From Candidatus Saccharimonadia bacterium (GTDB lineage: Bacteria > Patescibacteriota > SICC01), in contig JANWJF010000001.1 in NCBI GenBank assembly GCA_025449535.1, forward strand, positions 741,136 to 805,135: a DNA stretch of 64,000 nucleotides, in the 5' to 3' direction. Under the pieces are notes generated by a model. The model was given only the letters and a program-made list of their open reading frames with translations. It had not been told where the DNA came from and did not search any database. The position numbers were made by a program, and so were the translations under genes. Shown here piece after piece: positions 24,508 through 25,996 of this stretch (the first letter of the stretch is position 1; each line of letters begins with the position of its first letter).

Positions 24508-24515
24508 GAGCTTAT

Positions 24516-24566
24516 TAGATCAGATTACCTGATCTAATTGACAGATCAGTGTTTCTGATCTAAAAT
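24516..24566 (+). promoter_or_regulatory. consensus sigma70 promoter TTGACA(24538-43)-N17-TAAAAT(24561-66) with two 7-5-7 palindromes TAGATCAG-n5-CTGATCTA (24516-36) and AGATCAG-n5-CTGATCT (24543-61)
   Basis: Read directly; the second palindrome occupies the spacer; GATC inside each half-site; low-GC context. Confidence 0.6.
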
Positions 24567-24593
24567 TGTCTCGTAATTAACTTTTGAGGTTGT

Positions 24594-25676
24594 ATGAAGC
24601 TCACAGCAGTTCCTGTTAATCAAAAAGGTAAGAAATTCTACGTTACACAAATCCCAGCTACAAAGCTGATTGATCAACGTATTTTCCGAGTTGCAGCCTG
24701 GGATCCGAAAGAAAAGAATCCCAAGAAGCAAGGCTACCAGCGAGTCGAAGTTTCAACGCGGGCTCGTAAGATCGGCAAGTATATGACGGAATCCGACCAG
24801 CCCCATGAAAGCGTGCTTCCGGGAGCCATCCTTATTAACTCGCGTCGCCCAATCAAAGTTCTTTCGGAAGGCTCCGGTAACGTCGAAATTGAAATCCCAG
24901 AGTATCCAGCCTTCATCGTCGACGGCCAACACCGCGTAGCGGGAGCGCGGCATGCGATAGAGGAGCTTAACGACGAAGAACTAGAAAGCTACCAGTTCCC
25001 AGTAGTGCTGACGGACTTTGATCAGCCTAAAGAAACGTTACATTTTAAAACTGTTAACGAAGAAGCCAAGAAAGTATCTACCGAGTTGAGCCATCGGCTT
25101 CTCAGGGATCTCAACTTGGGCGGGACTGACATTTCTACAGAGAAAGATCGATGGACTATGAGAGCCCTTGGAGCAATCGATGCTCTGAATGCCGATTCTG
25201 AATCTGTGTGGTACAAGCGCATTGCTATTCCAGGAGAGAAGAAAACACCTGCTCATATTTCTAAGCAGCAATCGTTTGAATCGTCCCTTAAGCCTTTGTA
25301 TGGCAAGAATGCCCGTTTTTCTGACGAGCATACAAAACTCGATGAAGCCACAGGGATCATGAATAATTTCTGGGGCGCGTTGTCAGAAATATTCCCTGGG
25401 GCATTCCTTGAGCCCAAGGATTATCTCATCCAACGGACTCCGGGACTTTTTTCGCTTCATGCTTTGCTAGCACGAATCCTTCAGTACCAGCCCAACCCTT
25501 CCCGGCAGGATCTTAAAAAGATTCTTAAAGCTATGGCTGAAGGCATGGACATGACCGAAGATTTCTGGCGAGCTGGGAAAGATGCTGATGGAGCGGCGGT
25601 ATACGGAAGCATGAAGGGCTTCAACATGCTTTACGAGCAAATGTGGTCCAATATCCCGTCTGAGTTATTGCGATAA
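24594..25676 (+). CDS. DGQHR-domain protein (DndB-like, ParB/Srx-type fold)
   Basis: Signature FIVDGQHRVAG; 360 aa; ~47% GC against a ~65% background; RBS GAGG. Confidence 0.7.
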   Translation: MKLTAVPVNQKGKKFYVTQIPATKLIDQRIFRVAAWDPKEKNPKKQGYQRVEVSTRARKIGKYMTESDQPHESVLPGAILINSRRPIKVLSEGSGNVEIEIPEYPAFIVDGQHRVAGARHAIEELNDEELESYQFPVVLTDFDQPKETLHFKTVNEEAKKVSTELSHRLLRDLNLGGTDISTEKDRWTMRALGAIDALNADSESVWYKRIAIPGEKKTPAHISKQQSFESSLKPLYGKNARFSDEHTKLDEATGIMNNFWGALSEIFPGAFLEPKDYLIQRTPGLFSLHALLARILQYQPNPSRQDLKKILKAMAEGMDMTEDFWRAGKDADGAAVYGSMKGFNMLYEQMWSNIPSELLR

Positions 25677-25707
25677 ATTGACTAAGCTGAGGAGTAAATA
25701 AGTCCTT

Positions 25708-25950
25708 ATGAGCAAGAACTATCACGTATCAGGTAACCGATCTGATGGTTACAAGGTAAAAGCGGAAGGCTCAGCCAAGTCGAGTTCTACACATGACACT
25801 CAAGGAGAAGCTGAGCAAGCTGCTAAGCAGTATGCAGCTGCTGCGGGCGGAGGCGAAGTGAGAATTCACCGCCCTGACGGCAGTATTCGCGACAGTGATA
25901 CTGTGCCACCCGCGCAAGATCCTTACCCGCCAAAAGATACTAGGCACTAA
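25708..25950 (+). CDS. DUF2188-family small protein (80 aa)
   Basis: Pattern MSKNYHV...DGYKVKAEG...TQGEAEQAA...EVRIHRPDGSIRD...DPYPPKD matches the DUF2188 consensus as I remember it; low GC. Confidence 0.55.
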   Translation: MSKNYHVSGNRSDGYKVKAEGSAKSSSTHDTQGEAEQAAKQYAAAAGGGEVRIHRPDGSIRDSDTVPPAQDPYPPKDTRH

Positions 25951-25996
25951 TCCTATGCTTCTCGTGAATACTTTCTTGGGGTAAACTCTCTTTTGT

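Follow-up and report, generated by a model that had tools for sequence, protein, structure and literature searches.

An orphan DGQHR-domain gene with a phased GATC array at its promoter, carried in a variable slot upstream of fusA

In a 64-kb stretch of a high-GC (0.64) Patescibacteria genome, here called the window, two adjacent genes of foreign composition are located between a histidine phosphatase (His_Phos) gene and fusA. The first codes for a DGQHR-domain protein and the second for a small DUF2188 protein. To our knowledge, DGQHR proteins are known only as components of large DNA-modification systems (Dnd, Dpd). The gene described here belongs to a mostly orphan clade that brings along a promoter of its own, set within an array of GATC sites at 13-bp spacing. 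Moreover, the two-gene cassette was acquired recently, and the slot that it occupies between the His_Phos gene and fusA is prone to swapping. We consider it moderately probable that the protein is an orphan, DndB/DpdB-like, ParB-fold putative autorepressor, which gates its own gene together with the gene downstream.

Phased GATC array at the promoter of the DGQHR gene

The elements of the DGQHR gene are as follows.
24514-24563, + strand: operator-like array of four GATC-centred sites, recognized by exact 13-bp spacing and two palindromes
24538-24566, + strand: sigma-70-type promoter TTGACA-N17-TAAAAT, matching 11 of 12 consensus positions
24594-25676, + strand: gene for the DGQHR-domain protein (360 amino acids; ParB/Srx-fold N-terminal and helical C-terminal domain), identified by profile hidden Markov models (HMMs), motifs and a structure model

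The GATC cores start at positions 24518, 24531, 24544 and 24557, exactly 13 bp apart, and the array is composed solely of such GATC-centred sites. Two palindromes were found, ATTAGATCAG-N5-CTGATCTAAT at 24514-24538 and AGATCAG-N5-CTGATCT at 24543-24561. GATC sites 2 and 3 flank the -35 hexamer, and site 4 shares bases with the -10 hexamer. A GAGG sequence is positioned 4 nt ahead of the ATG of the DGQHR gene. In the entire 64 kb there is only one array with at least three GATC at 13-bp distance, the one over the promoter, and all three occurrences of GATCTAA/TTAGATC in the window fall inside it. The core GATCTAATTGACAGATC is common to the two closest homolog loci, L081 and L082.

The same arrangement was looked for in a set of 100 DGQHR loci (80 genome loci and the two closest metagenome loci, with homologs of 24-58% identity, plus 18 viral loci). 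Upstream regions from -200 to +80, amounting to 27.8 kb, were scored against the other 935 kb of the loci as background. The most enriched 7-mer upstream of DGQHR was GATCTAA/TTAGATC, which was present at 23 of 100 loci as compared to 45 of 3290 background chunks (p = 1.3e-19) and ranked above the words of the -35 hexamer. Arrays of at least three GATC at 13 bp occurred eight times in the upstream regions and not once in the background. When spacings between 8 and 20 bp were compared, only 13 and 14 bp yielded more than one array. Distances between GATC pairs peaked at 13, 14, 26 and 28 bp only upstream of DGQHR; 24 pairs at 13 bp were counted there versus 24 elsewhere, corresponding to a roughly 34-fold excess by density. 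No GATCTAA/TTAGATC was found upstream of DUF2188 at any of 86 DUF2188 loci.

The hosts of strict arrays include Parcubacteria, Alphaproteobacteria (among them Caulobacter), Chloroflexota and Actinomycetota and represent at least three named phyla. Their proteins are only 26-34% identical to the DGQHR protein of the window. The nucleotides flanking the GATC vary (AGATCT, GGATCC, TGATCA), and both the GATC and the spacing persist. As this cis element is kept beside the gene across phyla, whatever the neighbours, it is most simply interpreted as a putative binding site of the gene's own product.

The DGQHR protein and its relatives

The protein scored 108.4 bits against TIGR03187 (cutoff 58.85) and 62.5 bits against the Pfam family DndB (PF14072; cutoff 29.1). 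An alignment of 33 sequences revealed no or hardly any variation at Q49-R50, D110-G-Q-H-R114 and F151...N155; the QR pair, the DGQHR pentapeptide and the FxxxN motif are the defining marks of the DGQHR domain (PMC4619093). In the AlphaFold model (pLDDT 93.5) a beta-rich N-terminal domain is followed by a helical C-terminal domain. The protein thus combines the profile score, the three motifs and the ParB/Srx N-terminal plus helical C-terminal build of the family. Its best structural neighbours, all with weak scores, were pNOB8 ParB-N, PadC, KorB, sulfiredoxin and ParB-CDP. PadC, pNOB8 ParB and sulfiredoxin, as well as Atu1540, are also among the reported structural neighbours of DpdB, which is an ATPase (PMC10164549).

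An earlier note on this DNA, made from the letters alone, had called the gene DndB-like, assigned its neighbour to DUF2188, given the pair a consensus promoter of its own and suggested structure prediction as a check. The HMM searches confirmed both assignments (68.7 bits against a cutoff of 22 for DUF2188, and 70.5 bits for PADLOC PDC-S16), the promoter was found, and the model of the DGQHR protein yielded the ParB-fold neighbours named above. The protein is, however, neither DndB proper (57.7 bits against a cutoff of 450 for the equivalog TIGR04172; 18.5 bits for PADLOC DndB) nor DpdB proper (70.9 bits against a cutoff of 300 for NF041060). DpdB was nonetheless the best full-length profile match, covering residues 1-329 (70.9 bits for NCBIfam, 67.4 bits for PADLOC). 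DndB was the sole Pfam match, and a nuclease domain was not found in the protein.

The family comprises 974 representatives of 50% identity clusters at E values up to 1e-3 and 91 at E values up to 1e-30, out of 1.84 billion. The clade is almost confined to uncultured lineages; cultured plasmids and phages carry relatives that are only 22-27% identical. Many members are solo genes in unrelated genomes, and the DGQHR gene is frequently lower in GC than its flanks. In the closest relatives a nuclease gene follows 4-23 nt downstream. Both L081 and L082 (58% and 56% identity) have a DUF2779 gene 4-8 nt downstream, a family described as Cas4-like plus DEDD exonuclease (PMC13621843, PMC3985635). Altogether, eight of the 12 closest loci have neighbours of the nuclease, restriction-modification or transposon type. 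Besides DUF2779, these include an HNH gene (L066, the only locus with a separate HNH gene after the DGQHR homolog), an OLD ATPase-TOPRIM gene (L007), PD-(D/E)XK/Cas4-like genes (L002, L003), a methylase-Mrr fusion (L082), a methylase with a TdeIII endonuclease (L001) and TnpB (L008). Neither dpdA nor dpdC-K genes were found beside close homologs, and the TGT-type (dpdA) family was absent from the 25 most frequent neighbour families in each scan of DGQHR homologs.

In a distant clade of about 25 Chloroflexota loci, the synteny is fixed and involves genes for class II ribonucleotide reductase and GGDEF proteins. In these loci (L010, L020-L029, L034-L048, L052, L053, L059, L062) the DGQHR gene is divergent from the class II ribonucleotide reductase gene (TSCPD domain) and lies near GGDEF/HAMP proteins. 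The clade lacks the upstream GATC array and might constitute a housekeeping branch of the family or one that is regulated differently for another reason.

Some relatives are long fusions ending in a DGQHR domain (P0363, 1053 amino acids; P0385, 1050 amino acids; P0345, 474 amino acids). The N-terminal part of P0363 is a HelD-like, RNA-polymerase-associated helicase (PDB 6yxu, E value 2.5e-63), and this fusion fits a transcription-linked role. By eye only, segments of P0385 resemble sigma-70 region 4 and the C-terminal domain of RNA polymerase alpha, and P0345 seems to contain an Mrr-N-like winged helix. In the Bathyarchaeia loci L021, L033 and L036 the DGQHR homologs follow two conserved upstream genes of about 363 and 500 amino acids; this gene set might represent a genuine cluster of the modification type. 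Among the upstream neighbours of the locus set as a whole, PAPS_reduct and Radical_SAM each gave a single match.

A variable slot upstream of fusA and its DUF2188 gene

The cargo and its surroundings consist of the following features.
23623-24507, + strand: left anchor, histidine phosphatase (His_Phos_1) gene of host-like composition, from the Pfam match and the GC content at third codon positions (GC3)
24498-25970, unstranded: variable slot of about 1.47 kb with foreign cargo, from the alignment edges against the sister genome L198 and the GC minimum
25708-25950, + strand: gene for the small DUF2188 protein (80 amino acids) of the PADLOC PDC-S16 family, from HMMs, an alignment and a model
25971-25996, + strand: host fusA leader, which is kept in the sister genome and forms the right edge of the slot, from the alignment
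25997-28099, + strand: right anchor, fusA (EF-G), from TIGR00484 (1113.9 bits)

The GC content is 0.42-0.53 across positions 24500-26000 as compared to 0.62-0.70 on either side. With a value of 0.473, the slot is the minimum among all windows of 1473 bp in the 64 kb (mean 0.639, standard deviation 0.038). GC3 is 0.49 in the DGQHR gene and 0.42 in the DUF2188 gene versus 0.89-0.94 in rpoC, rpsL, rpsG, the His_Phos gene, fusA and tuf. Since it has not drifted toward the host value, the acquisition is recent. The two genes are separated by a gap of 31 nt with a GAGGAG Shine-Dalgarno sequence at 25689-25694, and fusA starts at 25997, 46 nt past the DUF2188 stop codon. Downstream of the GATC array no + strand terminator was predicted, neither between the two genes nor before fusA. 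The short gap with its Shine-Dalgarno sequence and the lack of a predicted terminator suggest that the pair is probably co-transcribed. No dnd, dpd or ssp genes flank the pair. Annotation of the surrounding 6 kb revealed neither dnd-like genes nor a TGT-type Pfam match (dpdA), and a ParA-type Pfam family was not recorded among the called genes within about 6 kb.

That cargo is exchanged horizontally is evident directly from L198, a 57-kb contig of a sister genome (ENA ERZ27297438 k141_84771), since the two sister genomes hold different foreign, defence-flavoured cassettes at the same place. Gene order is the same in both, rpoB-rpoC-rpsL-rpsG...His_Phos-[slot]-fusA...tuf-rpsJ-rplC, and the His_Phos protein has a homolog of 91% identity on L198. 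Similarity between the window and L198 stops at about 24497, in the last His_Phos codons, and resumes at about 25971, some 26 nt before the fusA start. In L198 the slot (8846-10248, matching 24498-25970 of the window) carries another low-GC pair, which consists of a 174-amino-acid open reading frame (ORF) and a gene for a 281-amino-acid DUF6602 protein (GC 0.42 and 0.40; flanks 0.64). The DUF6602 protein matches the PADLOC effector models PD-DExK (127 bits) and NucC (99.5 bits); neither a CD-NTase nor a CRISPR gene was seen near this NucC-like gene. The 174-amino-acid ORF has a hydrophobic stretch. In both genomes the cargo is oriented like fusA. An integrase, a tRNA gene or flanking repeats were not found at the slot, so recombination in the conserved flanks would be the simplest route of exchange. 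The slot is thus a hot spot for exchanged, defence-like cargo.

These results bear out most of what the earlier note had claimed for the location. It had described a sharp drop in GC over 1.5 kb, directly upstream of fusA and devoid of dnd, dpd or ssp partners, where we found the lowest window of the 64 kb and, as neighbours, only the His_Phos gene and fusA. Its reading of this drop as horizontal acquisition was strengthened by the different low-GC cassette in the slot of L198. The defence role that it had considered for the pair was borne out as a defence flavour of the location, as seen from the NucC-like alternative cargo, from DUF2188 as a PADLOC candidate and from the neighbours of the closest DGQHR loci.

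Contigs with identical proteins all originate from one sampled population. Within this population of the window, independent assemblies (L190, L191, L192, L197) stop 80-490 nt from the fusA start or start 27 nt before the DUF2188 gene, which suggests strain-level polymorphism or a branch in the assembly graph at the cassette.

The DUF2188 protein matches PF09954 over its full length (profile positions 1-62 of 62) and PDC-S16 (PDLC04941) at positions 1-74 of 75. Relatives with 50-70% identity and 15 invariant residues occur in many lineages. The model (pLDDT 86) displays a beta-beta-beta-alpha-beta-beta fold, and the published fold of DUF2188 and of the N-terminal domain of HicB is likewise beta-beta-beta-alpha(-beta-beta) (PMC13621843). 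The C-terminal tail DPxPPKDxKH is highly conserved, yet its model confidence is low, which would be in keeping with a docking motif. In the literature searched no experimental test of PDC-S16 was found; it is a candidate defence family, called a putative effector or defence-linked.

To define the usual company of DUF2188, 88 loci (about 0.5 Mb) were analyzed. At 34 of them a LexA-like gene (Peptidase_S24 plus LexA DNA-binding domain) adjoins the upstream side of DUF2188, in 21 cases in the same orientation with a gap of -7 to +35 nt, as in an operon, and in 13 cases divergently. Examples are L083:757-1669, L090:2847-3714 and L093:3841-4709 (range L083-L163), mostly on low-GC contigs. Several of the lexA promoters beside DUF2188 contain palindromes of the CATAC...GTATG type. 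The arrangement suggests that in lexA-linked lineages DUF2188 is part of the SOS regulon. Other neighbours were Xre-type repressors, ThsB-TIR, SMODS and methylases. The proximity to lexA fits published links of DUF2188 to DNA-damage-responsive regulators, as DUF2188 operons have been reported with CapH/CapP-like regulators of this kind (bioRxiv 10.1101/2022.04.27.489752); DUF2188 has also been linked to Thoeris islands (bioRxiv 10.64898/2025.12.03.692087). The GC content of DUF2188 genes is about 0.42-0.50 whatever the host, on average 0.04 above their mostly low-GC flanks (L083-L170) and far below the 0.64 of the host here.

Further variation was observed around the slot. The genes rpoB, rpoC, rpsL and rpsG occupy positions 8301-16739 (rpsL-rpsG 15797-16739) and tuf 29578-30759, and about 9 kb of mostly unannotatable ORFs separates rpsL-rpsG from fusA in this genome. 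Most ORFs at 16740-23622 have no Pfam match, with the exception of Bax1-I at 18138-18872, and GC3 is intermediate at 21841-23004 (0.75) and 23051-23590 (0.67). The L198 counterpart of the rpsG-fusA interval is only about 2.4 kb long and holds other genes, including a NUDIX hydrolase gene. Between fusA and tuf, the window contains a 272-amino-acid ORF on the - strand (28110-28928) without a family match and with a GC3 of 0.57 (core genes about 0.92), and L198 contains three unrelated + strand ORFs (260, 122 and 126 amino acids). The fusA-tuf interval looks like a second variable slot, and since gene content and length differ from those in L198 and GC3 varies along the window, the whole rpsG-tuf interval is a mosaic. 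Elsewhere in the window, an rRNA operon (59307-63238) has long spacers (16S end 60775, tRNA-Ile 61954, tRNA-Ala 63163). A 281-amino-acid ORF (61131-61976) in the first rRNA spacer overlaps the start of tRNA-Ile, and no 23S match was found before the window ends at 64000.

Proposed function and comparison with known systems

By analogy to DndB and DpdB, the DGQHR protein, probably a dimer modulated by nucleoside triphosphates (NTPs), would bind the GATC array. Binding would cover the -35 and -10 elements and shut off the protein's own promoter. Repression would extend to whichever gene lies downstream, until some signal releases it. The gated or partnered gene would be a nuclease gene in the closest relatives (DUF2779, HNH, OLD, PD-(D/E)XK) and the DUF2188 gene here. 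As cargo and fusA are co-oriented in both genomes and the conserved leader ahead of fusA is only about 26 nt long, transcription from the cassette promoter probably reads through into fusA and contributes to its expression.

Several observations weigh against an autorepressor. No helix-turn-helix is recognisable in the DGQHR protein, and the factor that binds the GATC array could in principle come from the host instead. Strict or paired GATC arrays were found at only about 8 to 19 of the 100 loci and are missing from the Chloroflexota ribonucleotide reductase clade. Furthermore, the DGQHR protein could act as an effector or sensor and not only as a regulator, by analogy to the ParB-like domains of GmrSD and SspE.

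We regard it as unlikely that the cassette is a decaying remnant of a sensor-plus-nuclease system, in which the nuclease was lost and DGQHR and DUF2188 are neutral passengers. The nuclease gene that closely follows DGQHR in the closest relatives is indeed missing here, slot content turns over between close relatives, and several assemblies of the population break at the cassette edge. However, the ORF is intact with all family-invariant residues, promoter and perfectly phased operator-like array are intact as well, and the many solo members in unrelated genomes argue for a stand-alone function. After such a recent acquisition, as indicated by the undrifted GC3, decay is not judgeable.

The two genes might also form a cognate pair, either for defence or of the toxin-antitoxin type. 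DGQHR could then be the toxin or sensor, for instance, and the HicB-N-like DUF2188 protein the antitoxin or effector. They share one promoter, a short gap and a foreign composition, both families are defence-linked (PADLOC PDC-S16 and DpdB/DndB models; DUF2188 literature), the slot carries defence-like cargo in the sister genome, and the order of a large gene followed by a small one parallels hicA-hicB. The lack of recurrence weighs against this reading, which we judge to be quite improbable. The earlier note had proposed a recurring DGQHR-DUF2188 module, to be given up if the pair never co-occurred elsewhere. A DUF2188 profile built from 120 relatives and run on all 100 DGQHR loci revealed no adjacent DUF2188 gene at the 82 genome or metagenome loci or at the 18 viral loci; in two loci DUF2188 lies 3-4 kb from DGQHR on the other strand. 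Conversely, none of the 88 DUF2188 loci had a DGQHR gene within about 5 kb. A conserved two-gene system was therefore rejected, as adjacency did not recur in unrelated genomes. Moreover, DUF2779 takes the downstream position in the two closest homologs. The nearest relative of the DUF2188 protein is 70% identical as compared to 58% for DGQHR, and this far better conservation, together with the partner lexA of its own, points to separate histories of the two genes. Since neither locus set shows recurrence, the pairing is a one-off combination of a regulator or sensor with cargo and not a conserved system.

A more specific variant, which we hold to be a rather doubtful one, is a GATC-reading switch. 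Here, an NTP-gated ParB-fold protein would load on the four phased sites depending on the methylation state of GATC. The linked effector (nuclease in the relatives, DUF2188 here) would be turned on when the DNA is unmethylated or hemimethylated or when a methylase is lost. The earlier note had thought of DNA-modification sensing, and the exclusive use of GATC-centred sites in the array is one hint in this direction. Such a switch would resemble the phase-variable promoters set by OxyR or Lrp with Dam. If true, this would make a regulator module that senses modification and can be joined to various effectors.

Finally, a ParB-like centromere or DNA-organising element, with the GATC array as a parS-like loading site of a sliding clamp for segregation or local chromosome structure, is very improbable: the ParB/Srx fold, the best structural matches (ParB, PadC, KorB) and the position of the sites would agree with it, as ParB proteins typically have binding sites next to their own gene, but there is no ParA or other partner gene nearby that would make up a ParABS system, the foreign cassette lies beside fusA and not near the origin, the GATC sites are placed precisely over the -35 and -10 elements, and the relatives sit among nuclease and restriction-modification genes.

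With about 90 clusters at 50% identity (E values up to 1e-30), an orphan DGQHR clade is now defined in a family without a known stand-alone function. It couples a self-contained promoter-operator of phased GATC sites with interchangeable partners. DUF2188, a PADLOC candidate, is now tied to lexA operons. Furthermore, candidate-phyla bacteria with tiny genomes use a slot in a cluster of ribosomal protein and elongation factor genes for swapping defence-like cargo. This slot resembles known defence hot spots between core genes in that two conserved anchors, the His_Phos gene and fusA, flank alternative foreign, defence-like cassettes in sister genomes. It differs from them by its location inside the rpsL-rpsG-fusA-tuf gene cluster of a candidate-phyla bacterium and by the lack of an integrase, tRNA or flanking repeats.

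The 80-amino-acid DUF2188 protein shares the fold of the HicB N-terminal domain and matches both DUF2188 models over their full length. In contrast to HicAB, there is no HicA-like toxin gene near DUF2188 and the protein has no DNA-binding C-terminal domain, so that it is not a member of this system.

GmrSD, BrxU and SspE are type IV restriction enzymes with a DUF262 ParB-like NTPase fused to an HNH nuclease. They resemble the present case in that a nuclease works alongside an NTPase-like domain of the ParB/Srx type that has a DGQ(H/Q)R motif, as the relatives of the window gene adjoin a separate HNH (L066), OLD, DUF2779 or PD-(D/E)XK gene. In contrast, the nuclease is separate and interchangeable in these relatives and absent in the window, the motif is DGQHR and not DGQQR, and there is no DUF1524 domain; the window protein is thus no member of this group. 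KorB and ParB-family repressors share palindromic operators at promoters and NTP-gated DNA binding, both of them predicted for the window protein, which differs by the lack of a recognisable helix-turn-helix and of a KorA/ParA partner and by another operator architecture. DpdB, the ATPase partner of DpdA in 7-deazaguanine DNA modification, has the same ParB fold plus helical domain, but the window protein scored far below the cutoff of 300, and dpdA or dpdC-K genes were found neither here nor near close homologs.

A close parallel is DndB. DndB of Salmonella enterica, the regulator of the dndBCDE operon for DNA phosphorothioation, binds two TACG-N10-CGTA palindromes in the operon promoter and thereby represses its own gene along with the downstream dnd genes (PMC4507180). 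This autoregulation is ATP-modulated (Xia 2019, cited in PMC10164549), and binding of both ATP and GTP is known from a DndB-like protein (PMC12704722). The window gene likewise codes for a DGQHR domain with QR, DGQHR and FxxxN motifs and lies behind a promoter with two palindromes, here predicted from sequence. It differs in that neither dndCDE nor other modification genes are found nearby, so that it lacks the dndC/dndD/dndE linkage of true DndB genes, in an operator sequence of GATC-centred sites at 13-bp phasing, and in a downstream gene that varies among relatives. The known kind is that of DndB-type autoregulated ParB-fold proteins, and the novelty here lies in an orphan clade of DGQHR genes and in the phased array of GATC sites that goes with it.

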